From positions 3,904,001 to 3,968,000 of the forward strand of contig OZ245842.1 of the NCBI GenBank assembly GCA_965228895.1: 64,000 nucleotides of DNA. The letters run 5' to 3'. Below the pieces are notes generated by a model, which saw nothing but the letters and a program-made list of their open reading frames with translations, did not search any database and was not told where the DNA came from. A program made the position numbers and the translations under genes. Each line of letters starts with the position of its first letter. Position 1 is the first letter of the stretch. Below are positions 7,183-55,113 of the stretch, one piece after another. Origin of the DNA: Alphaproteobacteria bacterium (GTDB lineage Bacteria; Pseudomonadota; Alphaproteobacteria; SP197).

Positions 7183-7428
7183 GCTTTTTTCACTCTCGCA
7201 CGGTCAGTGATGAAACGCTGCGTCAAACAAACGACATCCTTACGGAGGAAACTCTCCGTTTTGCTTATCTTTCGTCGCTGATGCAGTCAGATTCCGACGC
7301 AGGGTGGCGATCACCGCTTGCTCATCAACCAAAGCCCCTAGGCTTGGTTCCGCCGGTCTGTGCGAGGAGGACGGTATCCAACCAGCGCACGCTTTCCAAG
7401 CAGTTTTTTTCTTCCTGTCCCCAACCCG

Positions 7429-8280
7429 TTAACCTTTGAGAATCAGGCATCTCTCTCGATCGCCGAGGTCACGCCGCCGTTCGATGGCGGAAAGCCCACA
7501 ACGGCTCGCCAGCGCCTCAATGCCATCGGCCTGACCGGGCCCGTGTTCCAGGACGACGATACCCTGGTCAGCCAGGATCGGCCTTACCGGCTTCACGATC
7601 CGGCGATAGGCGTCCAGACCATCAGCCCCGCCGTCGAGCGCGGCGACCGGTTCCCACAAGGCAACCTCCGGCTCCAGTCCGGCGAGCGTCGCGGTCTCGA
7701 TATAGGGCGGATTTGACACCACGATGTCGAAGGGCCCGGTCAACCCGTTCGCCCAATCGCCCGACTGAAATGCCGCGCGATCGTCAAGCGAAAGACGTTT
7801 GGCGTTGTCGCGCGCCAGGGTCAACGCGTCATCGCTGGCATCAACACCCAGACCTGTGCTCGCCGACAGTTCATGCAGGAGTGTCAGCAACAAGCAACCG
7901 GTGCCGGTGCCCAGATCAAGCAGGCGCATCGGCTTCGAACGATTGGCGACATGATCGAGGACTGCCTCGATCAACGTTTCACTCTCGGGCCGCGGGCTCA
8001 GGACGGCGCGGCTGACACCGAAGTCCAGACTCCAAAACTCTTTCGTACCGAGGATCTGCGAGACCGGTTCGCGTGCCTCGCGTCGCGCAATCAGCCTATC
8101 GAAAGCATTTGCGTGGGCTTCGCCAAGCAGTTCATCGCTGTGGCCGATCAGGTGCGCGCGGTCGCAATCGAGCACGTGACAAAGCAATAACTCGGCATCG
8201 CGCTTGGGCGTCTCAACGCCGGCGTCATCAAGGCGTGGCACAGCCGCCGCAATCGACTGCCGGAGTGTTGGTTCCCTCAC
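7429..8280 (-). CDS. prmC: Release factor glutamine methyltransferase PrmC/HemK
   Basis: [11 protein letters not shown] motif, [14 protein letters not shown]; overlaps the prfA stop by 4 nt. Confidence 0.95.
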
Positions 8281-14399: not shown

Positions 14400-15425
14400 T
14401 CAGGTTTCAAGCGCGGAGGCCGCCTGATTGACCAGTTCGGCCAGGATCTCGGCGGTCGGCTGTTCGGCCGTCACCAAACCAACGCTTTGACCGGCCATCA
14501 GCGAACCGGACTCGACATCGCCGTCGATCACGGCGCGGCGCAACGCCCCGGCCCAGAAATGCTCGATCTCGAGCTGGGCTGCCTTCTGGTCCAGTTCACC
14601 GCCGTCGAAGCGCTCGATGACCTCGCGCTGCTTGTCGAGAAACTCCTTCGTCGCCGCGTTGGTCAGCGCGCGCACCGGAATAACCGGAAAGCGCGGGTCA
14701 AGCTGAACCGACGGCTGGGCGTCGCGCGCGGCGGCACGGATAAAGCTGCGTTTGAAATCGCCGTGGGCGATTGACTCGGTGGCGCAGACGAACCGCGTGC
14801 CCAGCTGCACACCGACGGCGCCCATGGTGAGGTACGTGGCAATCGCCTCGCCCCGGCCGATGCCGCCGGCAACAAACACGGGCACGTCCTCGATATGCGG
14901 CAGAATCTCCTGGGCCAGCACGCCGGTGGCGACCGGACCGATATGGCCGCCGGCCTCCATGCCCTCAATGACGATCCCATCAATGCCGTCGCGGACCAGC
15001 TTGCGCGCGATGGCCAACGCCGGTGCGAAGCCAATCACCTTGGCACCGCGCGCCTTAACACGGGCGATGGTGTTCGATGACGGCAAACCACCGGCAAGCA
15101 CGATGTGGCTGACAGTGTGATCACCACAAACGTCGATCAGCGCGTCGAGATCGGGATGCATGGTGATGAGATTGACGCCGAAGGGTGCTCCCGTCAGGGC
15201 GCGTGTCGCCTCGATCTCAGCAGCCAGCAGATCCGGTGTCATGGCGCCGCAGGCGATTACGCCGAACCCACCGCCATTGGAAATTGCCGCCACCAGATTC
15301 CGCTCGGAAACCCAGGTCATGGCGCCGCCCATGATCGCGTGATCGACGCCCAGAAGATCGCGGCCGCGGGCCCAAAGCTGGTCGAGCCGAGCGCGACCTG
15401 GTGACGCTTTCAACAACCGGTTCAA
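14400..15425 (-). CDS. Nitronate monooxygenase / FabK-like FMN-dependent oxidoreductase
   Basis: GGAMTWVS, EGMEAGGHIG, AGGIGRG, GTRF, GSLMAGQSVG motifs. Confidence 0.88.
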   Translation of the reverse strand: MNRLLKASPGRARLDQLWARGRDLLGVDHAIMGGAMTWVSERNLVAAISNGGGFGVIACGAMTPDLLAAEIEATRALTGAPFGVNLITMHPDLDALIDVCGDHTVSHIVLAGGLPSSNTIARVKARGAKVIGFAPALAIARKLVRDGIDGIVIEGMEAGGHIGPVATGVLAQEILPHIEDVPVFVAGGIGRGEAIATYLTMGAVGVQLGTRFVCATESIAHGDFKRSFIRAAARDAQPSVQLDPRFPVIPVRALTNAATKEFLDKQREVIERFDGGELDQKAAQLEIEHFWAGALRRAVIDGDVESGSLMAGQSVGLVTAEQPTAEILAELVNQAASALET

Positions 15426-16642
15426 TCCACGTCCAGGCCGTAGGCCGTGTGAAGCGCGCGCAGCGCCAGCTCCAGGTAATCCTCGGAAATCAAAACACTG
15501 ATTTTGATTTCCGATGTCGAGATCAGTTGAATGTTGATGCCACGCCCGGCGAGCGCATCAAACATGGTGCGCGCGACACCGGCGTGACTGCGCATGCCGA
15601 CGCCGATCACAGAGACCTTCACCACGTTGGCATCCGGCGCGAAACGCTGCGCGCCCAGCTTGTCGTTATCTTTTTCGAGCAGATCGAGGGTGCGGTCCAA
15701 ATCGGACTTGGCGACGGTGAATGTCAGATCGGTGCGGTCGCCGTCCTCGGAGATGTTCTGGACGATCATGTCGACGTTGATGTTAGCGTCGGCTAAGGGC
15801 CCGAACAGGCTGGCAGCGACGCCGGGCCTATCCGGCAGGCCGATGATGGTGATTTTAGCGTCATCGCGGCTATAGGCGATGCCACTGACAACTTGTTGCT
15901 CCACGATTTCGTCCTCGTCGACGACAAGCGTGCCCGGCGTGTCGGTGAAGGTTGAGAGAACTTGCAACCGCACATGATGGTTCATGGCGGTAGCGACAGA
16001 CCGCGTGTGCAAGACCTTGGCGCCCTGGGACGCCAGTTCCAGCATTTCCTCATAGGTGATCTTATCGAGCTTGCGCGCCTTGGCAACGATCCGGGGATCG
16101 CACGTAAAGACGCCCTCGACATCGGTGAAGATGTCGCAGCGCTCTGCGCCCAGTGCGGCGGCCAGCGCCACGGCGCTCAAATCCGACCCGCCGCGGCCCA
16201 AGGTCGTCACGCGCCCGACGTCGCCGAGGCCTTGAAAACCGGTCACCACGGCGACTTGGCCGTTCGCCAGCCGCTCCTTCAACACACCTGTCTCGATGCG
16301 TTGGATACGGGCGGCGCCATAGACGTCGTCGGTCTGGACCGGAATCTGCCACCCCGTCCACGACCGGGCATCAATACCAAGCTGCTGCAGCGCAATCGCC
16401 ATCAGGCCGGCTGTGACCTGCTCGCCGCTGGAGACGACGGCATCGTATTCGCGCGCGTCGTGAACCGGCGCCATGGTGCGCACCAACTCGACCAGGCGGT
16501 TGGTCTCGCCGCCCATAGCCGACACAACGACCGCGACCTGGTCGCCCCGGTCGACGGCTTCTTTGACGCGTGTCGCGGCGTGGCGGATGCGATCGATACC
16601 GCCAACCGACGTCCCGCCGAATTTCTGAACGATGACGGCCAT
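15422..16642 (-). CDS. lysC: Aspartate kinase
   Basis: QKFGGTSV, TTLGRGGSD, two ACT domains, STSEIKIS. Confidence 0.97.
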   Translation of the reverse strand: MAVIVQKFGGTSVGGIDRIRHAATRVKEAVDRGDQVAVVVSAMGGETNRLVELVRTMAPVHDAREYDAVVSSGEQVTAGLMAIALQQLGIDARSWTGWQIPVQTDDVYGAARIQRIETGVLKERLANGQVAVVTGFQGLGDVGRVTTLGRGGSDLSAVALAAALGAERCDIFTDVEGVFTCDPRIVAKARKLDKITYEEMLELASQGAKVLHTRSVATAMNHHVRLQVLSTFTDTPGTLVVDEDEIVEQQVVSGIAYSRDDAKITIIGLPDRPGVAASLFGPLADANINVDMIVQNISEDGDRTDLTFTVAKSDLDRTLDLLEKDNDKLGAQRFAPDANVVKVSVIGVGMRSHAGVARTMFDALAGRGINIQLISTSEIKISVLISEDYLELALRALHTAYGLDVD

Positions 16643-16670: not shown

Positions 16671-16733
16671 AGAGCGGATCGTGGTTAGGTGGAACCGGGT
16701 ACCCGGTTCCACCTAACCACGTGAATCCGCTCT
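16671..16733. repeat. Palindromic element A (AGAGCGGAT...ATCCGCTCT) with a perfect 42-bp internal palindrome
   Basis: 16680-16721 CGTGGTTAGGTGGAACCGGGT|ACCCGGTTCCACCTAACCACG is self-complementary, and the flanking 9-bp arms also pair. Confidence 0.85.
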
Positions 16734-16744
16734 CCATCTATTGA

Positions 16745-16808
16745 TAGAGCAGATTCACCCGTCTTGATGGAATCGCAAAGTGATTCCATCAAGACGGGAT
16801 CTGCTCTA
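16745..16808. repeat. Palindromic element B (TAGAGCAGAT...ATCTGCTCTA), RIME/Bru-RS-like
   Basis: TAGAGCAGAT-tca-CCCGTCTTGATGGAATC-gcaaagt-GATTCCATCAAGACGGG-ATCTGCTCTA; same termini as element A in opposite orientation. Confidence 0.85.
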
Positions 16809-16859
16809 AGGCCGGAAATAGCGCTTCCCGGCCGGAAAGCGGCCCTACATACTCTCGCG

Positions 16860-17645
16860 ATGATAGCGAAGCAAGCCGTCGCCCCCGCACCCGGCAAACG
16901 GCCATCAACGGTCGATCCGAACGAAGTCGACCAGTTTGACGCCCTGGCCGACCGCTGGTGGGACCCGACGGGACCCTTCCGGCCCCTGCACCGACTGACG
17001 CCGGCCCGCCTTACCTATGTTCGTGACCGCATTGCCACACATTTTGGTCTGGAAACTGGCCGAAATGAGCCATTTTCCGGGCTGCGTGGCGTCGATATCG
17101 GCTGCGGCGGCGGCCTGGCCAGCGAACCCCTTACCCGTCTGGGCATGGCGATGACCGGTGTCGACGCCGGCGCGAACAACATCGGCGCCGCCCAGGCACA
17201 CGCCAAAGGCCAAGGCTTGGTCATCGATTATCGCTGCACAACGGCCGAGGACGTTGCCGCAAACGGAGAACGGTTCGACGTCGTTCTGGCCCTTGAAATC
17301 ATAGAACACGTGGCCGATCGGGGCGCTTTTGTCCGGGCTTGTTGCGAACTGGCAACACCTGGCGGCCTGATCATCCTGTCGACGCTCAACCGCACGGCGA
17401 AAGCCTTTGGCCTGGCTATCGTGGGCGCGGAGTATGTTTTGCGCTGGCTGCCGCGTGGCAGTCACGATTGGCGCAAGTTTGTTCGGCCATCGGAACTAGC
17501 CCGCGATCTGCGCACGGCCGGCGCCAAACCGACCGACACAAAAGGCCTCGTCTTCGATATTGTCGCCAACGAATGGCGGCTTGCCGGCGATCTCGACGTC
17601 AACTATTTCATGACCGCCGTTTTGGATGCCCATAATGGAAGCTGA
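16860..17645 (+). CDS. ubiG: Ubiquinone biosynthesis O-methyltransferase UbiG
   Basis: WWDPTGPFRPLH, DIGCGGG, LEIIEHV, STLNRT, GSHDWRKF. Start moved to ATG 16860 because the longer ORF reads through a repeat. Confidence 0.93.
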   Translation: MIAKQAVAPAPGKRPSTVDPNEVDQFDALADRWWDPTGPFRPLHRLTPARLTYVRDRIATHFGLETGRNEPFSGLRGVDIGCGGGLASEPLTRLGMAMTGVDAGANNIGAAQAHAKGQGLVIDYRCTTAEDVAANGERFDVVLALEIIEHVADRGAFVRACCELATPGGLIILSTLNRTAKAFGLAIVGAEYVLRWLPRGSHDWRKFVRPSELARDLRTAGAKPTDTKGLVFDIVANEWRLAGDLDVNYFMTAVLDAHNGS

Positions 17646-21591: not shown

Positions 21592-23379
21592 GTGACCGGC
21601 GACCAGATCGCAATCAGCGTCATCATCCTGGTAGCAGCAGCGCTGTTCATCTGGGGCCGCTGGCGCTACGACCTCGTCGCCTTTACCGCCTTGATTGCGG
21701 CCGTCTTGACCGGCGTGGTCAACAGCACGGCGGCCTTCGCCGGCTTCGGCCATCCCGCCGTCATCACGGTGCTGGCGGTGCTCGTCATCAGCCGCGGCCT
21801 GTTTAACTCCGGTGTCGTCGACATCATCGCGCGCACGGTCGTGCGCGCAAGCGCCAGTCCCTTCCTTCACGTCACCGTGCTGGCCGGTGTCGCGGCCTTT
21901 CTATCGGCGTTCATGAACAACGTCGCGGCGCTGGCGCTTTTGATGCCGGTCGCCCTGCAATCTTGCGCCAAGGTCGACCGCGCGCCGGCTCTGGTCTTGA
22001 TGCCGCTTTCCTTCGGCTCGATTCTGGGCGGCCTTGCAACACTGATCGGCACGCCACCCAACATCATCATTGCGTCCTATCGCGCCGAGAACCTGGGCGC
22101 AGGCTTCGGCATGTTCGACTTTACACCGGTCGGCGGTGTCGTCGCGGTGATCGGTGTTTTGTTCGTTGCGCTGGTGGGTTGGCGCCTGCTGCCCAAGGAC
22201 GTCAGAAGCCGCAATGTTCCCGCCGACCTGATCGCCATCGAAAACTACGTGACCGAAGCCAGCGTTGGCGAAGGTTCGAAGGCGATAGACCAACCGATCC
22301 ACGAGCTCGACGATACGCTGGAGGAACACGACACGCGGATCATCGGCCTGATCAGACAAGGCCGTCGCATCCTGAGTGCGGCGCGGCGCGAACACGTGCG
22401 CGAAGGCGACGTACTGATGCTTGAGGCAAGCCCCGAAGGTATCGCGGCCGCTGTCGCGGATCTGAAACTGGAACTGGTCGGCGACAAGGGTCAGGCAGCC
22501 GAACTCTTGACCGGCGCGAACGCCGTGATGGTCGAGGCCGTGGTTCAGCCACGCAGCCGGATCGAAGGCCACACGCCCAGCAGCCTGAGTCTGGGCCGCC
22601 AACACGATATCAATCTGTTGGCCGTATCACGCCAGGGCAGACCCCATCGCGGCCGCCTGCGCTCGTTCCGCTTCGAAGCCGGCGACGTTCTCCTGCTACA
22701 GGGCGAAAGCGAGGACATCCATACGGCGCTTGGCCGGCTCGGCTGTCTGCCTTTGACCATGCGCGAGGTTTCCATCGGCAAGCGCCGCATGATCCTGCCG
22801 GCCTTGGGTCTGTTCGTCGCCGCCGTCGCCGCCGCGGCGATGGGTCTTGTTGCCATCACCATCGCGTTTTCCGCCGTCATGATCGCCATGGTCTTGTTGC
22901 GCATGGTCAGCCTGCGCGAGCTCTATGACGCCGTCGACTGGCCCGTGCTGGTTTTGCTGGGCGCCATGATCCCGGTCGGCGGCGCGCTCGAGTCAACCGG
23001 CACGACAGCGCTCATCGCCAATGCCATCCTGTCTCTGGCGGGCGATCTCTCGCCGCTCATCCTGCTCGGCCTGGTTCTGGTCGTCACGATGACGCTGTCG
23101 GACATCATGAACAACGCAGCGACCGCCATCGTCATGGCGCCGATCGCCGTCGGCATCTCCAGCGCGTTGGGCGCCAACGCCGATCCGTTCTTGATGGCTG
23201 TCGCCATCGGCGCGTCCTGTGCGTTCCTGACACCCATCGGCCACCAGAACAACACGCTGATCATGGGTCCCGGCGGCTATCGGTTCGGCGACTACTGGCG
23301 CATGGGACTGCCGCTGGAGATCCTTATCGTTGTCGTTGCCGTGCCACTGATCTCGGTCGTCTGGCCCCTGGGAATCTGA
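21592..23379 (+). CDS. SLC13/DASS permease with TrkA-C (RCK-C) domains
   Basis: SAFMNN, TLIGTPPN, soluble central TrkA-C repeats, TPIGHQNN, GGYRFGDY. Confidence 0.9.
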   Translation: MTGDQIAISVIILVAAALFIWGRWRYDLVAFTALIAAVLTGVVNSTAAFAGFGHPAVITVLAVLVISRGLFNSGVVDIIARTVVRASASPFLHVTVLAGVAAFLSAFMNNVAALALLMPVALQSCAKVDRAPALVLMPLSFGSILGGLATLIGTPPNIIIASYRAENLGAGFGMFDFTPVGGVVAVIGVLFVALVGWRLLPKDVRSRNVPADLIAIENYVTEASVGEGSKAIDQPIHELDDTLEEHDTRIIGLIRQGRRILSAARREHVREGDVLMLEASPEGIAAAVADLKLELVGDKGQAAELLTGANAVMVEAVVQPRSRIEGHTPSSLSLGRQHDINLLAVSRQGRPHRGRLRSFRFEAGDVLLLQGESEDIHTALGRLGCLPLTMREVSIGKRRMILPALGLFVAAVAAAAMGLVAITIAFSAVMIAMVLLRMVSLRELYDAVDWPVLVLLGAMIPVGGALESTGTTALIANAILSLAGDLSPLILLGLVLVVTMTLSDIMNNAATAIVMAPIAVGISSALGANADPFLMAVAIGASCAFLTPIGHQNNTLIMGPGGYRFGDYWRMGLPLEILIVVVAVPLISVVWPLGI

Positions 23380-23382
23380 GTC

Positions 23383-24633
23383 ATGACACTCAACGTCCAG
23401 AGCGCTCTTGGCCTTGTTGTCCTGATCTTTATTGCCTGGCTCCTGGGCGGGGCCAGGAAGAAAGGTGCGCTCAAGATCGTCGCCGTCGGTGTCGGCCTCC
23501 AGTTCGTTCTGGCGCTGATTCTGCTGCTCATCAAACCGATACGCGATGCGCTCTCCTTGGTGACCGACGCCGTCGAAGCGATGGCGGCGGCGACCGAGGC
23601 CGGGACAACCCTGGTTTTCGGTTATCTGGGTGGCGGCGCGACACCGTTCGAGGTGAGCAATGCCGGGGCCATGTTCATCCTGGCGTTCCGCGGCCTACCG
23701 CTCATCCTCCTGGTCAGCGCGCTCAGCGCTCTGCTGACCCACTGGCGCATCCTGCCATGGATCATCCAGGCGATCAGTCGCGTCTTGGAGAAGAGCTTCG
23801 GCATCGGCGGCGCGGTCGGCCTGGCGACCGCCGCCAACATCTTTATCGGATCGGTCGAAGCACCGTTGTTTGTCCGTCCGTATCTGGCGCGTATGACACG
23901 CAGCGAACTCTTCGTCCTGATGGTTGGCGGCGCGGCAACCATCGCCGGAACGATGTTTGTCATCTATGCCACCATTCTGGGCGCCGCGGTATCAGACGCC
24001 GCCGGAAACCTACTCGTTGCCTCTGTCATGAGCGCGCCGGCGGCCATCATGGTCGGTCTGCTCATGCTGCCGGAGACCGAAGCCCAGACCAGCGGCCATG
24101 TCGCCGTGACCTCCGAGGCAAGCGGCGCCATGGACGCAATCGTCCAGGGCACCGAACAGGGCATCAAGATCGTGCTCGGCGTCATTGCCATGCTGATCGT
24201 GCTCGTCGCCCTGGTCAGTCTGGTCAATCAGATCCTCGGCCTATTCCCGGATGCCTGGGGCGCACCGTTGTCGTTGCAGCGCCTTCTGGGCTACGCGCTG
24301 GCGCCCCTGGCCTGGTTGCTCGGCATTCCGTGGGCGGAAGCGGAAACCGCCGGTCAGCTTCTCGGGACCCGGGTTATCTTGACCGAGTTCGTCGCCTATC
24401 TGGATCTGGCCGCCCTGCCCGCCGGCACGCTGACCGAACGCAGCGAGATCATCCTGACCTTCGCCATGTGCGGTTTCTCCAGTCTTGCCGCGCTCGGCAT
24501 CATCATCGGCGGCCTGTCGGCCATGGTGCCCAGCCGGCGCGCCGAGATCGTCGCGCTCGCGCCGCGCAGCATCCTGGCCGGCGTCATCGCGACATCCCTG
24601 ACCGGCTGCGTCGTCGGGGTTCTGATCTCCTAA
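23383..24633 (+). CDS. NupC/CNT-family nucleoside:cation symporter
   Basis: ANIFIG, EAPLFVRPYL, ATIAGT, MSAPAA, LTEFVAY, MCGFSS motifs. Confidence 0.9.
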   Translation: MTLNVQSALGLVVLIFIAWLLGGARKKGALKIVAVGVGLQFVLALILLLIKPIRDALSLVTDAVEAMAAATEAGTTLVFGYLGGGATPFEVSNAGAMFILAFRGLPLILLVSALSALLTHWRILPWIIQAISRVLEKSFGIGGAVGLATAANIFIGSVEAPLFVRPYLARMTRSELFVLMVGGAATIAGTMFVIYATILGAAVSDAAGNLLVASVMSAPAAIMVGLLMLPETEAQTSGHVAVTSEASGAMDAIVQGTEQGIKIVLGVIAMLIVLVALVSLVNQILGLFPDAWGAPLSLQRLLGYALAPLAWLLGIPWAEAETAGQLLGTRVILTEFVAYLDLAALPAGTLTERSEIILTFAMCGFSSLAALGIIIGGLSAMVPSRRAEIVALAPRSILAGVIATSLTGCVVGVLIS

Positions 24634-24661
24634 ATCGACCGTTTGTTTGTTGGCCTTGCTC

Positions 24662-24704
24662 TTGACTCAATCGATATATCTAGATATCTAGAAATATCGA
24701 TTGA
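24662..24704 (+). promoter_or_regulatory. -35 box (TTGACT) plus 38-bp near-perfect palindrome, putative ArsR operator
   Basis: TCAATCGATATATCTAGAT|ATCTAGAAATATCGATTGA (24667-24704, one mismatched pair), AT-rich, 16 nt before the ATG of an operon that contains an ArsR gene. Confidence 0.75.
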
Positions 24705-24720
24705 CCCGAAGGAGACCACC

Positions 24721-25125
24721 ATGCGTCTGCACATTTCGATGCAGGTTAAGGAATTCGACAAAGCCATCCGCTTCTACTCGGGCCTGTTCGGCCAGGCGCC
24801 GACGGTGACGCGCGACAACTACGCCAAGTGGGATGTCACCGACCCCAACGTCAACTTCGTCGTTGAAGCCCTGGGCAACGAAGTCCGCGTCGACCACCTG
24901 GGCATTCAAGCGGAGACCAAGGACGAACTGACGGTGCTGGCCGGGCGCATGCGCGAGAGCGGGCAGCCGTTCCTCGATGTCGAGAACGCGCAGTGCTGCT
25001 ACGCGGATCTCGACAAAGCCTGGGTCAAGGGCATGGCCGGCGAAAAATGGGAAGCCTTCTTCACCCACGGCCAGTCGGAGCAGGAATACGGCGAAGACCG
25101 CGAACACTTGCTTGATATCATGTGA
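24721..25125 (+). CDS. ArsI/CadI-family VOC metalloenzyme, copy 1 (vicinal CC intact)
   Basis: MRLHIS, RFYSGLFG, YAKW..DP.VNF, DHLGIQ, CCYA..DKAWV, WEAF; AGGAG SD. Confidence 0.85.
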   Translation: MRLHISMQVKEFDKAIRFYSGLFGQAPTVTRDNYAKWDVTDPNVNFVVEALGNEVRVDHLGIQAETKDELTVLAGRMRESGQPFLDVENAQCCYADLDKAWVKGMAGEKWEAFFTHGQSEQEYGEDREHLLDIM

Positions 25126-25168
25126 CGTCAACACCGTCACAGCCGATCACAAGCAAGGAAGTCATCAC

Positions 25169-25975
25169 GTGGAAACGAATCAAACCGATACCGTCGCTTC
25201 GAGCCAAGGACGTTTGTCCGGCAAGAACGCCATCGTCACCGGCGGCGCCGGCGGCATGGGCCGTGCCGCGTCCGTGCTGTTTGCGCGCGAGGGCGCTGCC
25301 GTCACGATCCTCGACATTCAGAAAGAAGCCGGTGAAGAGACAGTCGACGAGATCGAGCAAGCTGGTGGACGGGCGCAGTTCGTCGAGACCGATGTCACCG
25401 ACACCGGCCAGATCGTTCGTGCTTTCGACAAGGCAACCACGACTTACGGCGAACCGGACGTGTTGTTCAGTCACGCCGGCACCATCATCGTGAAACGTTT
25501 CCACGAAACGACGGACGATGACTACGACCGCCTGATGGCGATCAACGCCAAGTCGTCCTTTCTGTGCTGCCGCGAAGCGATCCGGCGCTTTCTCGACGCT
25601 GGCAGGCCCGGGTCGATCGTTATCACGTCGTCGATCGGCGGCGAAAAAGGTTTCGCTCTGGAAAGCGTCTACTGCATGTCGAAAGGCGCGGTGCTGCAGC
25701 TCGCACGCTCGATATCCAGTGAATACCGGGACCAGGGCATTCGCTGCAACGCGGTCTGTCCGGGTTTCGTGAAAACGGCGCATGGCCTGCGCGAAATCGA
25801 TGAACTCGATGGTCTGGGACAGACCTGGGAAGAGGCCGCGCTTGCCGAATCGCAAGTCCGTATCTGCGAGCCCGAGGAAGTCGCCGCGGCGGCGCTTTAT
25901 CTGGCCTCAGACGACGCGAGCTTCGTCAACGGCACAGCGCTCTATGTCGATAACGACTGGTACGCGAAAGGCTAA
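25169..25975 (+). CDS. Short-chain dehydrogenase/reductase
   Basis: TGGAGGMG, SHAG, YCMSK catalytic motif, NAVCPG; GTG start after AAGGAAG. Confidence 0.88.
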   Translation: METNQTDTVASSQGRLSGKNAIVTGGAGGMGRAASVLFAREGAAVTILDIQKEAGEETVDEIEQAGGRAQFVETDVTDTGQIVRAFDKATTTYGEPDVLFSHAGTIIVKRFHETTDDDYDRLMAINAKSSFLCCREAIRRFLDAGRPGSIVITSSIGGEKGFALESVYCMSKGAVLQLARSISSEYRDQGIRCNAVCPGFVKTAHGLREIDELDGLGQTWEEAALAESQVRICEPEEVAAAALYLASDDASFVNGTALYVDNDWYAKG

Positions 25976-25998
25976 CCCATGCACATCCGGCAAACATT

Positions 25999-26253
25999 GT
26001 GAGTGAAGAAAGCGTCAGGGCGTTTGTGCTGCAGGCGCGCGACGACGAAACGCTCAAGGAATCCATGCGCCACGTCGGCTCATCCGATGACGTGGTCGCG
26101 CTTGCCGTCACAGCCGGTCACAGGTTTTCGGCCGACGACTTGGACAAGACCAACGTCGACCTGGCGGCCGAAGATCTGACGAAACTTGCCGTCCGCCGGG
26201 CCGGCTTCCGTGTCCAGCCTTATGGCGCGAAACACTGGTTCGGGTGGAAGTAG
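25999..26253 (+). CDS. Nif11-like leader peptide protein (possible RiPP-precursor-like peptide)
   Basis: MSEESVRAFV...DETLKE...DDVVALAVTAGHRFSADDL...DLAAEDLTKL matches the Nif11 leader pattern; 18-aa aromatic, cationic tail. GTG start with weak SD. Confidence 0.65.
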   Translation: MSEESVRAFVLQARDDETLKESMRHVGSSDDVVALAVTAGHRFSADDLDKTNVDLAAEDLTKLAVRRAGFRVQPYGAKHWFGWK

Positions 26254-26298
26254 TAACTCTGGCCGCCAAAGCGTGGCCTCTGCCAATGGAGCATTTGA

Positions 26299-26619
26299 AT
26301 GTCGTTTCTTTCCCAACACTTTCCTGAGTTCACATCCACGCTTACGGAAATGGACAAGGTTTACGAACAACACCGAACGATCGACCACAAGACCGACGAG
26401 CTCATCCGTTTTGCCTTGTCGATCAAGGCGCGCTCCAAACCCTGTGTCCTCAAACACTTCAAGGGCGCGGTCGACGCCGGTGCCAACGAATACGATCTCG
26501 CCTATATCCTCGCTCTGGTGATGCGCGAGGCCGCCGGTGCCGACGACTGCTGGACCCACGATGTCATTGGCGACTGGCAGGAGGTCATTTCCGGCAAGCG
26601 CGGCTGCGGTTGTCCTTAG
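26299..26619 (+). CDS. Carboxymuconolactone decarboxylase/AhpD-like protein, Cys-rich
   Basis: IDHKTDELIRFALSI...SKPCVLKH..GAVDAGA helical CMD pattern; additional DDCW and C-terminal CGCP; GGAG SD. Confidence 0.75.
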   Translation: MSFLSQHFPEFTSTLTEMDKVYEQHRTIDHKTDELIRFALSIKARSKPCVLKHFKGAVDAGANEYDLAYILALVMREAAGADDCWTHDVIGDWQEVISGKRGCGCP

Positions 26620-26629
26620 GAGGCATGTG

Positions 26630-27037
26630 ATGGGTGCTCTAGCGGAACAATGGGCGCAGTTGCGCGAGCTCTCGATGCGCGAGGACACGCTGGCGCTGGA
26701 AGAAGCAGCACAGGGTTTTGCCGCGGCGGGGTCGGAACCACGCCTGGAGGTGCTGCGTATCCTGATCCGCGCCGGCGAGGCCGGATTGACAATCGGCGAG
26801 GTACAAAACCGCGTGGGCTTTGCGTCCTCGACGCTGTTCCATCATCTGCGTTTCTTATCGTCGGCCGGCCTTATCGAACAGGTGAAGTCGGGCCGGACGG
26901 TGCACAACCGGGCGAACTTTGCCCGGATCGAATCGCTCGCGGCGTTCCTGCTGCACGAGTGCTGTTTCGAAGATCCCGAGTACGCACCCGACGGCAAGAC
27001 ACTCGGCTGTAAACCGCGCCGGCGTTCACAATCATGA
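26630..27037 (+). CDS. ArsR/SmtB repressor with C-terminal ECC...C metal(loid) site
   Basis: FAAAGSEPRLEVLRILIRAG..GL, STLFHHL..L..AGLI.Q, FLLHECC plus a later Cys; AGGAGG SD 6 nt before ATG 26630. Confidence 0.88.
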   Translation: MGALAEQWAQLRELSMREDTLALEEAAQGFAAAGSEPRLEVLRILIRAGEAGLTIGEVQNRVGFASSTLFHHLRFLSSAGLIEQVKSGRTVHNRANFARIESLAAFLLHECCFEDPEYAPDGKTLGCKPRRRSQS

Positions 27038-27056
27038 ACCCGAAAGGAGAAGACAC

Positions 27057-27497
27057 ATGAAACGGATCCACATGGGAATCGTCGTGACCGATTTCGACAA
27101 ATCGCTGAAGTTCTACTCGGACCTACTCGGCGCCAGCCCAACGCTGCTCAAGGACGGGTATGCGCGCTGGATGCTGGACGATCCCTGCGTCAACCTGAAC
27201 ATCAACGTTCAGGGTCCGGCGCCGGGCATCGATCATGTCGGTATCCAGGTCGACAGCGATGACGACGTTGCCGAAGCCGGCGAACGGTTGCGCGCCGCCG
27301 GTCATCTGGCAAAGGACGATAACGACTCGAACTGCGGCTACGCCGAACAGACCAAGGTGTGGGTCTCCGACCCCCAGGGCGTCGTGTGGGAGACCTTCCA
27401 CTCCAAGAAAGCCCTTGAGAACTATGGCGAAAATGATTTGCCCGACGACCTTATCGAAGAACTGCGCGACGGTGCCGGAGCCACAGCGCCGTCGTAG
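27057..27497 (+). CDS. ArsI/CadI-family VOC metalloenzyme, copy 2 (CG instead of CC)
   Basis: MKRIHM, YARWMLDDPCVN, DHVGIQV, NCGYAEQTKVWVSDPQG..WETF; AGGAG SD. Confidence 0.87.
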   Translation: MKRIHMGIVVTDFDKSLKFYSDLLGASPTLLKDGYARWMLDDPCVNLNINVQGPAPGIDHVGIQVDSDDDVAEAGERLRAAGHLAKDDNDSNCGYAEQTKVWVSDPQGVVWETFHSKKALENYGENDLPDDLIEELRDGAGATAPS

Positions 27498-27522
27498 ACG
27501 AGCTGCCGGGCCGTAGAAATCC

Positions 27523-27559
27523 ATCTGGGGCGAGCCGCGATAGGCGGCTTGCCCCAGAT
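27523..27559 (+). terminator. Strong hairpin closing the ArsR islet
   Basis: ATCTGGGGCGAGCCGC-gatag-GCGGCTTGCCCCAGAT, a 16-bp stem with one G-U pair; no clear U-tract. Confidence 0.5.
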
Positions 27560-27682
27560 TGCCACAATCACACCATGGTCCAGCCGCCTTCCTGTGCCAT
27601 AAGATGGTCGGCGAAGGCATGGGGTCGCTGAAACCATCAAGACCCGCTGCAGTGCCTTCGCCGAAAATCGGGAGGGTTGGCG

Positions 27683-30600
27683 ATGACGGCACGTGGGTTG
27701 GCGACTGTCTGGTGTCTGGTACTTTTGGCCATGGGGCTATCGGGGCCGTATGCCCTGGCACAAGACACCAAGACACTTCCCAGCCTGGAGGTCACCGACC
27801 TCGCCGTCGATCCCGAGAGCGATCCCCCGCTCGCCTGCATCAGCTTCGATGAACGGCTTGCCGAGAGCGAAGGCCTCGACTGGAAGAGTTTCGTCCGCAT
27901 CGACCCGGACGCCGATATCGCCATCACGGCACGGCGCAACTTCCTGTGCCTTGAAGGTCTCAAACACGGTGAGCGTTATGACGTCACCCTGAAAGCGGGC
28001 CTGGCGGGCACCACCTCGGCGCTGGCCGAGGACGTGCCTCTGCAGATCGTCATGCCCGACCGCGCGCCGACCGTGTCCTTTGCCGCCGGCGACGATGTCT
28101 TGCCGCGCGTCGGCGTCCAGGGTCTGCCGGTCACCACGGTCAACGTCCCGATCCTCGTGTTGAAGGTGTTTCGCATCAACGAGCGCGCCGTCGCGGCGCG
28201 TGGCGGCAGCGACCTGCAGGGCGGCGAGGTCTATTCGTGGACCCTGGATGATCTCGAGAACGAGAGCGGCGAGCTCCTGTGGTCCGGCGAAATGGATATC
28301 GCCGGCACCATGAACAAGGACGTGCGCACCGCCATCCCCTTGAATGAGGTGATCGGCACCCTGGAGCCCGGTCTCTATGTCGCCACCGCCCTTGATGCCC
28401 GGCGCGCCGATGACGACTACCCGGCCTGGGAAAGCCAGCCCTTCATGGTCTCGAACCTGGGCGTGGCGACGGCGCTTGGCGATAGCGGTCTGGACGTCAC
28501 CGTGCGTTCGCTGGCCGATGCGACGCCGCTGGCCGGCGTGACCCTGGAACTGATCGCGCGCAACGACGCGGTGCTCGGCACCATCGTGACCGACGCCGAC
28601 GGGTATGCGCGCTTCGATCCCGGCATGGTGCGCGGCACGGGCGGCAATCGGCCCAAGCTGCTGACCGCGACCGACAGCGAGGGCGACTACGTCTATGTCG
28701 ACCTTGCCTCAGCCCCCATTGATCTCAGCGATCGCGGCGTCAGCGGCCGCGCGCCATCGGGCCCGCTGGACGCCTATCTCTATACTGAGCGCGGCATCTA
28801 TCGGCCCGGTGAGACCGCCCATATCACCGCCATTCTGCGTGACGAAAACGGCGCGGCGGCGTCGGACCTGCCGCTGACCTTCCGCGTGCTGCGCCCCGAC
28901 GGTCAGGAGGTCCTGCAACGCACTTCGGCTGACGACGAAGACGGCGGCCATCTGTTGACCCTCGATATCGCGGGCAACGCCTATACCGGCACCTGGACGG
29001 TCGAAGCCTATGTCGATCCGGATGGCGCGCGGGTCGGCCAGGTCAACTTCCTGGTCGACGACTTCGTGCCGCCGCGCATCGAGGTCGAGATGTCGGCATC
29101 GCCCGACGTGCTCTCGGTCAAGACGCCGGAAGCGACCGTCGATGTCGAGGCGCGGTTCCTCTACGGCAGCCCCGCCGGCAATCTGGCGGCCGAGCTCAGT
29201 CAGGTGGTCGCCAAGTCGGTTCACCCCTTCGCCGATCTCCAGGACTACTATTTCGGCCTGGCGGAAGAAAACGTGCTGCCGCGTCAGCTCGACGACATCG
29301 CGTTCACGACCGATGACGCCGGCCAAGCGAGCCTGGCGATCGCGGTACCGCCCGACGAGGGCGTTCAGTCCCCCGTCGAACTGCAATTGCGCGCGACCGT
29401 CTTCGATGTCGGCGGGCGACCCGTCAGCCGTGAGCTGACCTTACCCATCGTCCAGCAGCCGATGCTGCTCGGCATCCGGCCCAGTTTCGAGGACGATCGC
29501 GCACCATGGCGCCAACCCGCCGAATTTGATGTGATCGCTGTCGACTGGTCGGGCCAGCGCATCGACAAATCGGGCCTGCAGTGGGATCTCTTCCGCGAGC
29601 AGTATGACTGGGTCTGGTACGAGGACGACCAGTGGCAGTACCGCGGCGTTCTCTATGACCGTCATATCGCGGGTGGACGCTTCGACGCCGCCGCCGATAC
29701 CCCGGCCCGGATCGCCGCCGAAATCGACTGGGGCTGGTTCCGGCTCGAGGTCTATGATGCCGAAACAGGGATCGCCAGCAGCTACCGTTTCCGTGGCGGC
29801 TGGTCCTATGGCGTCGCCGGATCCGACGGCACGCCGGACGCGGTGACCGTTACCTTGTCCGAACAGGTCTATGCGCCCGGCGACACGGCCGCCGTCTTCG
29901 TTCAGCCGCCGTTCGATGCCGAAGTCGAGATTGCGGTCATGGATAGCGGCGTACGCGACATCATGCGTGTGGCGGTGCCCAAAGAAGGCATGGAGATCAG
30001 CCTGCCGATCGAGGCCACGTGGTCGCCCGGCGTCTACGTCGTCGCGACCGCCTATAACAAGACGCCGATGGCCGACGAACTGATTTCGCGGCGCGCCATC
30101 GGCGCGGTCTGGATGGCCGTCGAGGAACCCGACCAGCGCCTGACGGTGACGATCGATGCACCGGACTCGATCGAACCCACCCAGACACTGGCCGTCCCGA
30201 TCCAGGTGTCCGGTCAGGCCGCCGGCACGAAAGCTTTCGTGACCCTGGCCGCCGTTGATGACGGTATCCTGCAGCTGACGCGCTTCGACGCGCCAGACCC
30301 GGCGAGTTACCTGCTGGACCAACGCCGTCTGGGCGTCGATCTACGCGACATCTACGGCCGGCTGATCGACCCCAGCGCCTCGGCACTCGGTCAGCTGCGC
30401 TCCGGTGGCGACATGATGCGCGGCGCCGGCGTCGGCTCGCTGCCGCAACGCTCCAGCAAGGTCGTCTCGCTCTTCTCCGGCATTGTCGAAACCGATGCGG
30501 ACGGGCGCGCGGTCATCGAGCTCGACATCCCCGACTTCAACGGGCGGCTGAAACTGATGGCGGTCGCGTGGACCGTGGCCGGCGTCGGCGCGGCCGCCGT

Positions 30601-32467
30601 CGACATGACCGTTGCCGCACCCGTGGTGGCCGACCTCTCCCTGCCACGCTTCCTGGCGCCCGGTGACCGTGCCTGGGCGACACTTGCCGTCGACAATGTC
30701 AGCGGCACGCCCGGCCCGTACAGCTTCCAGGTCAACGCCGGTGGCGCCGTGACGATCATCGGCGCGAACCAGCAGAGCATCGATCTGGCGGTCGGCGACG
30801 GCACCGGTCTGCAATTCGAGCTGGTCGGCGACCATCTTGGCGTGGCGGACATCCAGCTCACCGTGACCGGTCCCGACGACTATCTGGAGGTGCGGTCGTG
30901 GGGCCTGACCGTGCGACCGGCGACACGCGCCGATGTCACGCGTGTCTCGATGACACTCGAGCCCGGCGCATCCGACAGTGTGAGTACATCGTTGTCAGAC
31001 GGTCTCTATCCAGAGTCCGTCGTTGCCACGATCGGCCTCAACACCGTGCCGGCGTTCGACGTCAAAGGTCTGCTCGATGAACTCGCCGCATACGGTTACG
31101 CCTGCGCCGAACAGACGACGAGCCGCGCCTTGCCCCTGCTCTATTTTACGAGCGACGGCATGCTGGGCCCGGATGATGTCATCGAGAACCTCACCACCCA
31201 CCACGATGTCGATGAGGCCGTGCGCAGCGTGCTCGCCATGCAGCGGCCCGACGGCACCTTCGGTTACTGGTGGTGGTACAATGACACCAATCTGTGGCTT
31301 TCGACCTATGTCATGGACTTTCTGGTCCGCGCGCGCGAACGCGGCGTCTTCGTGCCTGAATTCGGCTATGACCGCGGCATCAAGGCGCTGCAACGCGCCG
31401 TCGCCGATTGGCGCGACGAGTCCGGCGACCTCGCCTACGCCTATTATGTGCTCGCCAGAAGCGGCAACAGCGACCTCGCCGAGCTCGAGTACTTCGCCAC
31501 GACGCATTATGAGGACGAGTGGTTCCTGGACGAGGCCTTCATCGCCGCGTCGTTCGATCTGCTCGGCGATCCCGAACGGGCTGCCGAGGTCGCGGCCGGC
31601 ATCAACCCCAACTTGGAAGATCTGCAGAGTCACGAGTGGTCGTGGCGCTATCGTTCGGTTTTGACCGATCTCGCCGCCGCCACGGCGGTGCTCGGCGAGA
31701 GTCGGTCGATCCCGGCGGCCAAGGTCCTGAACCTCGCCCAGCTGACGTCGGAGGTCTATGCCACGCGCCGTTGGATCAGCACCCACGAGGAAGCCTGGAT
31801 GCTGCTGGCGGCACGCAGCCTTGACCGTTTCACCGGCGACGTCCGAGCGACACTCGGCGGCGAAACCATTGACCAGAGCCAGGGTTTGAGCCGCGATCTC
31901 GCCTGGCCGCCGGCAGGCGGGTCGCTCGACGTGGCCAACCAGGGCGACAAACCGCTCTACGCGACCGTCACCGTGCGCGGCTATCCGATGGAAGCGCCGC
32001 CGGCCCAGGAGAACGGCTTTTCGATCGAGCGCCAAGTCTACGACATGGCCGGCAACCCGATCGATCCCAGCACCATGGCCCAACACGACCTGGCGGTCGT
32101 CGTCCTGACCGGTGACTTGAGGGACCGCATCTGGTGGGAGTACGAAACCTGGCACGACATCCTCCTGATCGATTTGTTGCCGGCCGGCCTGGAGATCGAG
32201 AACGCCCGGCTTGAAGGCAACCGCGATCTCGAAAACGTCGCCTGGCTAGGCGACGACCTCTCGCCAACCGACAACGTCGAGCAACGCGACGATCAGTATG
32301 CGGCGGCGCTGAGCTTCGCGGGCAAGACCGGCTTCAAGGTCGCCTACATCGTGCGCGCGGTAACGCCGGGCAGCTATGTCTATCCTGCACCCTATGTGGA
32401 GGACATGTACCGGCCGTACCAGTTCGCGACTGGCAAGACCGGCCAGTTGGACGTAACCGGGAACTAG
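27683..32467 (+). CDS. Bacterial alpha-2-macroglobulin (YfhM-like)
   Basis: About 1590 aa; signal peptide, ERGIYRPGE, AAVDDGIL, PRFLAPGD, thioester motif CAEQ, RAVTPG..EDMY; followed by pbpC. Confidence 0.93.
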   Translation: MTARGLATVWCLVLLAMGLSGPYALAQDTKTLPSLEVTDLAVDPESDPPLACISFDERLAESEGLDWKSFVRIDPDADIAITARRNFLCLEGLKHGERYDVTLKAGLAGTTSALAEDVPLQIVMPDRAPTVSFAAGDDVLPRVGVQGLPVTTVNVPILVLKVFRINERAVAARGGSDLQGGEVYSWTLDDLENESGELLWSGEMDIAGTMNKDVRTAIPLNEVIGTLEPGLYVATALDARRADDDYPAWESQPFMVSNLGVATALGDSGLDVTVRSLADATPLAGVTLELIARNDAVLGTIVTDADGYARFDPGMVRGTGGNRPKLLTATDSEGDYVYVDLASAPIDLSDRGVSGRAPSGPLDAYLYTERGIYRPGETAHITAILRDENGAAASDLPLTFRVLRPDGQEVLQRTSADDEDGGHLLTLDIAGNAYTGTWTVEAYVDPDGARVGQVNFLVDDFVPPRIEVEMSASPDVLSVKTPEATVDVEARFLYGSPAGNLAAELSQVVAKSVHPFADLQDYYFGLAEENVLPRQLDDIAFTTDDAGQASLAIAVPPDEGVQSPVELQLRATVFDVGGRPVSRELTLPIVQQPMLLGIRPSFEDDRAPWRQPAEFDVIAVDWSGQRIDKSGLQWDLFREQYDWVWYEDDQWQYRGVLYDRHIAGGRFDAAADTPARIAAEIDWGWFRLEVYDAETGIASSYRFRGGWSYGVAGSDGTPDAVTVTLSEQVYAPGDTAAVFVQPPFDAEVEIAVMDSGVRDIMRVAVPKEGMEISLPIEATWSPGVYVVATAYNKTPMADELISRRAIGAVWMAVEEPDQRLTVTIDAPDSIEPTQTLAVPIQVSGQAAGTKAFVTLAAVDDGILQLTRFDAPDPASYLLDQRRLGVDLRDIYGRLIDPSASALGQLRSGGDMMRGAGVGSLPQRSSKVVSLFSGIVETDADGRAVIELDIPDFNGRLKLMAVAWTVAGVGAAAVDMTVAAPVVADLSLPRFLAPGDRAWATLAVDNVSGTPGPYSFQVNAGGAVTIIGANQQSIDLAVGDGTGLQFELVGDHLGVADIQLTVTGPDDYLEVRSWGLTVRPATRADVTRVSMTLEPGASDSVSTSLSDGLYPESVVATIGLNTVPAFDVKGLLDELAAYGYACAEQTTSRALPLLYFTSDGMLGPDDVIENLTTHHDVDEAVRSVLAMQRPDGTFGYWWWYNDTNLWLSTYVMDFLVRARERGVFVPEFGYDRGIKALQRAVADWRDESGDLAYAYYVLARSGNSDLAELEYFATTHYEDEWFLDEAFIAASFDLLGDPERAAEVAAGINPNLEDLQSHEWSWRYRSVLTDLAAATAVLGESRSIPAAKVLNLAQLTSEVYATRRWISTHEEAWMLLAARSLDRFTGDVRATLGGETIDQSQGLSRDLAWPPAGGSLDVANQGDKPLYATVTVRGYPMEAPPAQENGFSIERQVYDMAGNPIDPSTMAQHDLAVVVLTGDLRDRIWWEYETWHDILLIDLLPAGLEIENARLEGNRDLENVAWLGDDLSPTDNVEQRDDQYAAALSFAGKTGFKVAYIVRAVTPGSYVYPAPYVEDMYRPYQFATGKTGQLDVTGN

Positions 32468-46921: not shown

Positions 46922-46924
46922 GTC

Positions 46925-47728
46925 ATGGATGCGAAGACAGCGGTCAGAAAGTCCTTCGAGGAAGGCGACTACCCCTATCCCGAGCCCTTTGGGCGCAAGA
47001 AATACGAGAAGAAGAAGGAACCCCTGCAGATCGAGCTGGTCCGCATGCTGCGCTGGTTGCACGAGACCGACCAACGCCTGGTCCTCGTTTTCGAGGGACG
47101 CGATGCGGCCGGCAAAGGCGGCATGATCAAGGCGCTGACGGAACACCTGAACCCCCGCGTCGCCCGCGTCGTTGCCCTGCCTAAACCCAACGAGACCGAA
47201 CGCGGTCAATGGTACTTCCAGCGCTACGTCGCCCACCTGCCGACCAAGGGCGAAATGGCTCTGTTTGACCGCTCCTGGTACAACCGCGCCGGCGTCGAGC
47301 GCGTCATGGGTTTCTGCGACGAGCCGCAGTACCGCCTGTTCATGAACCAGGCGCCGGCCTTCGAACGCATGCTGCTGGATGACGGCGTCCTGCTCTTCAA
47401 ATATTGGCTCACCATCAGCCAGCACGAACAGAAGCGCCGTTTCGAACGCCGCTGCAAGGATCCTCTGAAGCAGTGGAAAATGAGTCCGATCGACATGGCC
47501 GCTGTCGACAAATGGGATGACTATACGAAGGCGCGCGAAGAGATGTTTGCGGCGACTGACACCCCGTTCGCACCGTGGACCGTCGTCAACGCCGAAGATA
47601 AACACCGCGCCCGGCTGGCAACCATGCGCCACCTGTTGTCGGCACTTGACTACGACGGCAAGAATTCCGACGTCATCGGCACGCCGGACTCCAAGATCAT
47701 CGATCACCCGGATGGCGTCACCTACTGA
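46925..47728 (+). CDS. ppk2: Polyphosphate kinase 2
   Basis: FEGRDAAGKGG, WYFQRY, DRSWYNRAGVERVMGF, WKMSP.D. Confidence 0.95.
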   Translation: MDAKTAVRKSFEEGDYPYPEPFGRKKYEKKKEPLQIELVRMLRWLHETDQRLVLVFEGRDAAGKGGMIKALTEHLNPRVARVVALPKPNETERGQWYFQRYVAHLPTKGEMALFDRSWYNRAGVERVMGFCDEPQYRLFMNQAPAFERMLLDDGVLLFKYWLTISQHEQKRRFERRCKDPLKQWKMSPIDMAAVDKWDDYTKAREEMFAATDTPFAPWTVVNAEDKHRARLATMRHLLSALDYDGKNSDVIGTPDSKIIDHPDGVTY

Positions 47729-52682: not shown

Positions 52683-52789
52683 CGGCCTCTCCCCTCACGC
52701 CTCAAGGCAGGCTGGCCGCTCAAGCCATGGGATGCAAGGACGCCGTCGACGGTCTATAGAGGCGGGATGAACACGGGGAGAGCACAACC

Positions 52790-53794: not shown

Positions 53795-53845
53795 CATTCG
53801 TTGCCCGCCGCCTGACCCCCAACCCGACCTGGAGCGCCCCCCAAA

Positions 53846-55015: not shown

Positions 55016-55028
55016 CGTTGGCGTCGGC

Positions 55029-55113
55029 CCCCTCACCCAACTCCGGCTAAGGCGCATTCGCACCTAAGCCTGCGCAACCCTCTCCCCTTGAGGGAGAGGG
55101 CCGGGGTGAGGGG
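55029..55113. repeat. REP-like element (CCCCTCACCC / CCCTCTCCC family)
   Basis: Outer arms CCCCTCACCC / GGGTGAGGGG enclosing the hairpin CCCTCTCCC-CTTGA-GGGAGAGGG, between convergent genes. Confidence 0.75.

Follow-up and report, generated by a model that had tools for sequence, protein, structure and literature searches.

The C-As lyase ArsI and the arsR-arsI modules were reportedly described by Yoshinaga and Rosen in 2014. In these modules, as in arsI-arsR-arsC-acr3 operons (an example is the locus L083 on plasmid p1 of Rhizorhabdus dicambivorans), an ArsR-family repressor is paired with a vicinal oxygen chelate (VOC) enzyme of the ArsI/CadI type. We know of no established function for CadI, a cadmium-induced protein, nor of any identified reductase of pentavalent methylarsenicals. 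ArsI is presented as the only characterised aerobic C-As lyase in the accessible portion of one recent source (PMC12607644), and the accessible portion of another names organisms, and no genes, for the reduction of pentavalent methylarsenicals and the aerobic demethylation of dimethylarsenate (PMC11868830). Here we report a cassette of six genes in a 64,000-nucleotide stretch of an alphaproteobacterial genome (GenBank assembly GCA_965228895.1, contig OZ245842.1, positions 3,904,001 to 3,968,000 of the forward strand), which is called the window throughout. The cassette encodes, in this order, an ArsI-like VOC enzyme (VOC1), a short-chain dehydrogenase/reductase (SDR), a Nif11-like protein, a small protein of the carboxymuconolactone decarboxylase (CMD)/AhpD type, an ArsR/SmtB-family repressor and a second VOC protein (VOC2). 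We take it for a rare variant of the ArsR/ArsI organoarsenical module, in which the helper genes have putative roles, and the original interpretation is partly supported. With slightly better than even confidence, we regard it as a compact ArsR-autoregulated operon that would process thiol-reactive trivalent organoarsenicals by C-As cleavage rather than by export.

The cassette resembles arsI-arsR-arsC-acr3 operons in that both the Fe(II) triad and the Cys pair of ArsI are found in its VOC1 and in that the CC of its repressor shares an alignment column with the CC of the L083 ArsR. On the contrary, it has no ArsC, Acr3, ArsB, ArsH or ArsP, carries twin VOC paralogues of which one has a single Cys, and adds genes for an SDR, a Nif11-like protein and a four-Cys CMD protein. 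Moreover, its VOC1 belongs to a subclade of its own, which comprises about 28 clusters with identities of 57% or more; next come the ordinary ArsI/CadI proteins, none of them above 49%. ArsB, Acr3, ArsC, ArsH and ArsP were found neither in the six genes nor in the 49 other window open reading frames (ORFs) of at least 90 amino acids, which agrees with the original prediction of a system devoid of arsenite pump and reductase. The cassette is therefore not a canonical ars operon, which is defined by an ArsB or Acr3 pump and/or an ArsC reductase.

Thirty-two CMD homologues were aligned and used to scan one genome per GTDB species, yielding 599 pattern-matching stretches and 422 confirmed relatives, the best 80 of which were examined (L001 to L080). 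Exactly one of these 80 loci, L001, holds the complete set of six genes in unchanged order; it belongs to an alphaproteobacterial metagenome-assembled genome and encodes a CMD protein 88% identical to that of the window. The two loci are colinear over 2.8 kb with 72.8% nucleotide identity, and the similarity is confined to the cassette. In L001, genes for two methyltransferases and a papain-like protein precede the cassette, and an EamA transporter gene follows it. Purifying selection acts on each of the six genes, dN/dS between the window and L001 being 0.12 for VOC1, 0.17 for the SDR, 0.18 for the Nif11-like gene, 0.04 for the CMD gene, 0.12 for arsR and 0.07 for VOC2. Because of the synteny with L001, the conserved operator described below, the purifying selection and the single occurrence among the best 80 loci, the cassette is a real unit that is kept as a block and is rare. 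The linkage of the SDR, Nif11 and CMD genes to arsR/arsI that had been predicted thus holds for the block as it recurs in L001; at the other loci inspected, relatives of the SDR and of the CMD protein have no ArsI nearby. That relatives of these two proteins occupy different and unrelated contexts, and that consensus scans called no promoter or terminator, could be taken to indicate a chance juxtaposition of unrelated genes with no common function and possibly no co-transcription. Such a juxtaposition is extremely improbable, as the same six genes, order and operator are found in a second genome between unrelated flanks, purifying selection applies to every one of them and the intergenic gaps measure 10-45 nt.

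An ENA contig of 10177 nt, named for both P0131 (a VOC1 relative, 77%) and P0002 (a CMD relative, 87%), may represent a third copy of the cassette. On plasmids, a distant blastn search with the islet as query gave 92 matching records, none of which covered at least 80% of it, and the SDR and, weakly, VOC2 were the sole matching parts. The cassette was probably acquired horizontally. Its GC content is 0.57-0.63 vs 0.63-0.69 in the flanks, and the three islet ORFs listed for GC content at third codon positions (GC3), one of them on the opposite strand, show 0.61-0.73 vs about 0.8 in most other window ORFs. No flanking direct repeats indicative of a mobile element were found, the long repeats corresponding to VOC1/VOC2 paralogue similarity or being intragenic, and no recombinase family was detected among the window ORFs scanned. 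Around the L001 copy, a methyltransferase gene (328-1476) located 3 kb upstream has arsenite methyltransferase as its best NCBIfam match (82 bits, far under the cut-off of 263), and the EamA-family transporter gene (7331-8245) starts 100 nt downstream of the cassette on the same strand.

The features of the window locus are given in Table 1. As originally predicted, the six genes are co-oriented, closely spaced (successive gaps of 43, 23, 45, 10 and 19 nt) and, according to the Pfam and NCBIfam matches by which the cassette families were assigned, had been called in the right order. The position of the islet between nupC and the alpha-2-macroglobulin gene was likewise verified.

Table 1. Coordinates of the cassette, its putative signals and its flanking genes (window positions; aa, amino acids).
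Feature	Position	Strand	Description
VOC1	24721-25125	+	134 aa; ArsI-like Fe(II) VOC enzyme, vicinal Cys pair C92-C93
SDR	25169-25975	+	268 aa, GTG start; classical SDR oxidoreductase
Nif11-like	25999-26253	+	84 aa; leader-like residues 1-69, then tail FRVxPYGAKHWFGWK
CMD/AhpD-like	26299-26619	+	106 aa; four invariant Cys
ArsR/SmtB-family repressor	26630-27037	+	135 aa; C-terminal CC-x14-C
VOC2	27057-27497	+	146 aa; ArsI/CadI-like paralogue, C-G replacing C-C
TTGACT, -35-like hexamer	24662-24667	+	read from sequence; abuts palindrome
AT-rich palindrome, putative ArsR operator	24667-24704	.	38 bp, 19+19 nt
GC-rich hairpin 3' of VOC2	27523-27559	+	16-bp stem, 5-nt loop
NupC-type nucleoside transporter, upstream flank	23383-24633		
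Bacterial alpha-2-macroglobulin, downstream flank	27677-32467		

Both VOC proteins have ArsI of T. curvata as their best solved relative, at E 1.4e-22 for VOC1 (5d4f, 5c4p) and E 2e-20 for VOC2. When VOC1 is aligned with 5c4p, residues H4, Y34, H59, C92-C93, K99 and E111 correspond to Q8, Y38, H65, C98-C99, K105 and E117, the Fe(II) triad being H4, H59 and E111, and a Leu stands where ArsI has Q103. The catalytic roles of the triad, the Cys pair, Y38 and K105 in ArsI are set out in the literature (PMC12607644), and judged by its residues VOC1 holds this full active-site set of triad, Tyr, Lys and Cys pair. C92-C93 is kept in L001, and C-C is found in all 120 sampled VOC1 homologues, a sample that was drawn with VOC1 as query and may under-represent single-Cys forms. 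VOC2 keeps the H, Y, H, Q, K and E positions, and its second Cys is replaced by Gly, likewise in L001, so that the cassette does not possess two equivalent ArsI enzymes. The two ArsI enzymes claimed at the outset are therefore two ArsI/CadI-like proteins, of which VOC1 has the Cys pair and VOC2 has C-G instead. On plasmids, the best relative of VOC2, 48% identical, is the ArsI/CadI gene of an arsI-arsR-arsC-acr3 operon, and the best relatives as a group (48% or less) carry the ArsI/CadI annotation, some lying within such operons. The scores of both proteins are borderline: against the NCBIfam model NF041414 (ArsI_CadI, cut-off 116 bits) VOC1 reaches 112.8 bits, its L001 orthologue 122.6 and VOC2 114.4, and VOC1 matches the Pfam Glyoxalase model with 19.7 bits (cut-off 20.6). 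Aromatic degradation by an extradiol dioxygenase, a diol dehydrogenase and a CMD protein was ruled out, the VOC proteins being single-domain and ArsI-like and the CMD protein having no decarboxylase-type relatives.

The repressor matches the Pfam families HTH_20 (30.4 bits, cut-off 27) and HTH_5 (25.3 bits, cut-off 22). Its DNA-binding helix contains no Cys, and its C-terminus reads ECC-x14-C. The C-terminal CC...C that had been predicted is therefore present and is kept in L001 (CC and the third Cys, with a spacing of 17), and its CC aligns with that of the ArsR of a canonical arsI-arsR-arsC-acr3 operon. According to PMC11868830, C-terminal Cys sites in ArsR proteins sense As(III), or methylarsenite (MAs(III)) if only two Cys are present. 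The same source places the sensory Cys pair of AfArsR (Type 2) and of the MAs(III)-selective SpArsR at the C-terminal end of the dimerisation helix, where the CC of the cassette repressor also lies, whereas AfArsR, compared by its description there, has five residues before its third Cys instead of the 14 of the window protein and the 17 of L001 (PMC11868830).

Since the NCBIfam family of the VOC proteins also covers CadI, a response to cadmium or another soft metal has to be weighed at this point. In a CadI-type soft-metal stress operon, the repressor would sense Cd, Pb, Zn or Sb, the VOC proteins would be CadI-like and the CMD protein would buffer metal. Both VOC proteins are indeed borderline for a model that pools ArsI and CadI, the repressor weakly matches the family of Rv2640c, a neighbour of CadI, and permeases that travel with the CMD family match a Cu/Zn efflux family below threshold. 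However, the Rv2640c match (42.6 bits) misses the cut-off of 155 by a wide margin, VOC1 retains the C-As lyase residues including the equivalents of K105 and Y38, and the closest named relatives lie in ars operons with ArsC and Acr3. We consider an operon of this type unlikely.

The AT-rich palindrome that had been announced upstream of the cassette is present and unique in the window. Its arms are 95% complementary with no spacer, its core occurs a single time in the 64 kb and was matched in none of 100 shuffles, and palindromes of operator size are found at three places in the window and in one of 20 simulated sequences. The operator region is 87.5% identical between the window and L001, vs 72.8% for the coding DNA. 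The TTGACT hexamer and the palindrome core are unchanged in L001, where a G-to-T change in the left arm of the palindrome is, on a reading by eye, mirrored by a C-to-A change in the right arm. The hexamer is a putative promoter element, since no full sigma-70 site emerged from the promoter scan. Apart from the operator, the window has long palindromes only at 16684-16717 and 16762-16794, in the intergenic region between an aspartokinase-like gene (15422-16642, minus strand) and a methyltransferase gene (16764-17645, plus strand); in one of them, arms of 15 nt or more pair perfectly around GGTACC, and the other has an arm-loop-arm layout.

At the other end of the cassette, the stretch 27498-27600 that holds the hairpin folds at z = -4.07, and none of 200 shuffles folds as well. 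No U tract follows the hairpin, the terminator scan made no call and L001 has no equivalent (z +0.83), which makes the hairpin a property of the window locus and not of the cassette. The strong terminal hairpin put forward in the original prediction is thus present at the window locus. A repeated element was also considered and rejected, as the hairpin arm recurs no more than expected by chance. The Rfam search of positions 23000-29000 gave no match at E 0.1 or better.

From these elements, the C-As cleavage operon that we favour could work as follows. An ArsR dimer would occupy the palindrome over the promoter and would leave it once a trivalent arsenical binds to the CC(+C) site. VOC1 would cleave mono-substituted trivalent arsenicals, such as methylarsenite and aromatic arsenites, to As(III), and VOC2 would either act on a substrate offering only one As-S bond or have a role other than that of a lyase. 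The CMD protein may form a thiol relay that keeps the Cys sites reduced or that reduces pentavalent organoarsenicals to trivalent substrates. The SDR, presumably of the NAD type and recruited from a betaine-like catabolic cluster, may handle the organic moiety, and ars genes at other sites of the genome would have to take care of the As(III) that the lyase sets free. Considered against this scheme, the dedicated organo-metalloid processing module that had been proposed is backed by the ArsR/ArsI-like unit and by the active site of VOC1, and the redox steps assigned to the SDR and the CMD protein stay conjectural. MAs(III) needs two thiol ligands, as stated in PMC11868830. Dimethylarsenite (DMAs(III)) would take only one, so that an enzyme with a single Cys and another with a Cys pair fit a stepwise demethylation. 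A complete aerobic demethylation of methylated arsenic, with reduction by the CMD protein (perhaps together with the SDR), cleavage of DMAs(III) by VOC2 and cleavage of MAs(III) by VOC1, is a distinctly doubtful extension of the scheme.

The SDR matches Pfam adh_short_C2 at 2e-59. A TGxxxGxG motif and an N-S-Y-K tetrad are the rules for classical SDRs, and both can be read in its translation. In these enzymes an Asp at the end of strand beta-2 goes with NAD, and the presence of this residue suggests that NAD is used here. The closest relatives, 68-70% identical, are found on replicons of Rhizobium, Shinella, Sinorhizobium and Paracoccus. At all six loci inspected (L081, L082 and L084-L087), the related SDR gene lies directly upstream of genes for an OpuAC-type binding protein, a fused ProW-like permease and a ProV-like ATPase, and in five of the six a GntR regulator and another SDR are encoded upstream. 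The GntR-SDR-OpuAC/ProW/ProV clusters of Rhizobiaceae and Paracoccus share with the cassette an SDR, which differs there by its position directly upstream of a betaine/choline-type importer, with no metalloid genes nearby. As all six relatives adjoin betaine-type ABC importers, the SDR would stem by descent from betaine- or choline-like catabolism. Linkage of the SDR to arsR/arsI outside the cassette, which the original prediction called for, was found at none of the six loci, where the betaine-type ABC importers take their place, a result that in part contradicts it. A bolder and improbable variant of the demethylation scheme builds on this descent: the cassette would act on organoarsenicals that resemble choline or betaine, for example arsenocholine, dimethylarsinoylethanol or arsenobetaine products.

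The CMD protein scores 24.0 bits against Pfam (cut-off 23), and a profile of its family matches CMD structures (7y4r at E 1.3e-8). Weak NCBIfam matches were obtained to the GSU3128 family and to ArsM/AhpD fusion models. The family alignment shows four invariant Cys (C49, C84, C103 and C105), and the CxxC...H motif of AhpD is absent from the cassette protein, the first Cys being a Ser (S46-x-x-C49...H53). The AlphaFold model is of middling quality (mean pLDDT 77) and its best hit in a fold search is not significant (E 0.32, TM 0.35); with a model this weak, no structural conclusion on the clustering of the Cys was drawn. The family is strongly conserved: its search returned 879 matches, and the window copy is 66-70% identical to relatives in other bacteria and archaea. 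The CMD-family loci outside L001 come mostly from anaerobes.

Neighbours were counted around the 79 other CMD loci, on either strand and within 3.5 kb, 70 of these loci having at least 1.5 kb of upstream sequence. Thioredoxin_3 is present at 56 loci, an ArsP_1 permease at 51, ArsR at 48, an ArsC of the LMWPc family at seven and an Acr3-type permease at six, and at least one of ArsR, ArsP_1, ArsC and Acr3 is found at 57 of the 79. The linked thioredoxin is that of the NCBIfam 'MTH895/ArsE family'. ArsI occurs near none of the 79 CMD genes, and the same is true of the SDR and of Nif11. The predicted linkage of the CMD gene to arsenic genes is thereby upheld with regard to ArsR, but the partners are ArsP_1 and the ArsE-type thioredoxin instead of ArsI. 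These ArsR-ArsP_1-MTH895/ArsE-thioredoxin-CMD clusters have in common with the cassette the four-Cys CMD family and an ArsR-family regulator, and differ from it in being centred on an efflux permease and a thioredoxin. The window protein itself forms a separate sub-type (TDELIRF, 106 amino acids) found at one of the 80 loci. In L002-L080, the CMD protein, of about 107 amino acids and with four Cys, is usually encoded after ArsR, the ArsP_1-family permease and the MTH895/ArsE-type thioredoxin (e.g., L031, 4089-6324). A search of freely accessible papers gave no description of the four-Cys CMD as the fourth gene of ArsR/ArsP_1/ArsE-type clusters, and no link of the CMD family or of a Nif11 protein to ars operons.

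The best match of the CMD protein on plasmids is 31% identical. This relative (L088, 5941-6294), on a plasmid of Bosea sp. AS-1, ends a row of Blh/YeeE/TauE sulfur-handling genes, and small CMD proteins may have been recruited more than once to operons of thiol chemistry. The relative bears on another explanation, that of a metal-independent operon responding to thiol or electrophile stress (reactive sulfur, quinones) through a Cys-based redox sensor of the ArsR family. Such an operon would account for the thiol motif in the CMD active site, and some ArsR-family members sense persulfide, the BigR model matching relatives of the repressor. However, the window ArsR gave no BigR match, the VOC proteins are specifically ArsI/CadI-like with an arsenical-binding Cys pair, ArsP_1, ArsC and Acr3 accompany the close members of the CMD family, and the Bosea protein is too distant for a transfer of function. 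We therefore judge a thiol stress operon to be very unlikely.

The Nif11-like protein matches Pfam Nif11 (PF07862) with 39.2 bits (cut-off 23.8) and TIGR03798 with 39.9 bits (cut-off 32.3). Its tail, V-R-R-A-G-F-R-V-x-x-x-G-x-K-H-W-F-G-W-K, is the most conserved part between the window and L001. In a set of 5.8 billion proteins, two full-length relatives were found, one being the window's own, and among 1.84 billion representatives there was one full-length cluster, the other 242 matches being to the leader only; this Nif11 variant is confined to the six-gene cassette in the sets searched. The ESM Atlas added nothing beyond generic Nif11 and CMD cluster names.

With precursors of ribosomally synthesised and post-translationally modified peptides (RiPPs) of the Nif11 type (TIGR03798; prochlorosin-like), the protein shares a Nif11 leader, a Gly-containing motif and a short C-terminal segment. 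A metalloid-induced peptide system can thus be imagined, in which the Nif11-like protein would be a RiPP precursor with a leader (1-69) cut after 'AG' and an aromatic, cationic core of 15 residues, and in which the SDR, a VOC protein or the CMD protein would modify the peptide or take it as a cofactor. The TIGR03798 match is above its cut-off, the leader model stops just before R-R-A-G, beyond which comes the most conserved tail, no more than 23 nt in the window and 3 nt in L001 separate the SDR gene from the Nif11 gene, and the variant travels with this cassette only. However, the cassette differs from known RiPP systems by the absence of a maturase or exporter, by a core without Cys, Ser or Thr and by an invariant, cassette-only tail. 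LanM, radical SAM, cyclodehydratase and peptidase-ABC exporter proteins were found neither in the cassette nor in the 49 other window ORFs, no RiPP maturase or peptidase-ABC exporter was found in L001 either, and the VOC, CMD and ArsR families each have metalloid links of their own. This scenario, with its cut precursor and modified or cofactor peptide, appears very improbable.

Several observations weigh against C-As cleavage by the cassette. Both VOC proteins score just below the ArsI/CadI cut-off of a family that also includes CadI. The repressor reaches 45.8 bits with the NCBIfam model HTH_metalloreg, under the cut-off of 55, and the spacing of its third Cys varies between the two genomes. 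No complete promoter was called. The closest relatives of the SDR stand in non-arsenic contexts, without arsR/arsI, at all six loci, and ArsI is missing around the other CMD genes, where the neighbour counts are those of single-linkage BLAST clusters with one or two members per cluster checked by Pfam. Finally, with no pump or reductase nearby, a cassette acting alone would set As(III) free intracellularly.

If the cassette processes organoarsenicals, it offers in one small operon three candidates for the steps to which no genes were attached above, namely a single-Cys ArsI paralogue, a four-Cys AhpD-like protein and an SDR. The function of the CMD family, once known, would annotate hundreds of genes. 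Should the cassette respond to cadmium or sulfur stress instead, it would amount to a common stress operon accompanied by an unusual small protein.

Elsewhere in the window, three minus-strand ORFs of 777, 436 and 209 amino acids (45374-47707, 52754-54064 and 54434-55063) lack any Pfam match; their GC3, at 0.63-0.65, lies far under that of their neighbours, and they may correspond to foreign DNA or novel genes. A protein of 259 amino acids with many EF-hand calcium-binding repeats is encoded at 47916-48695.

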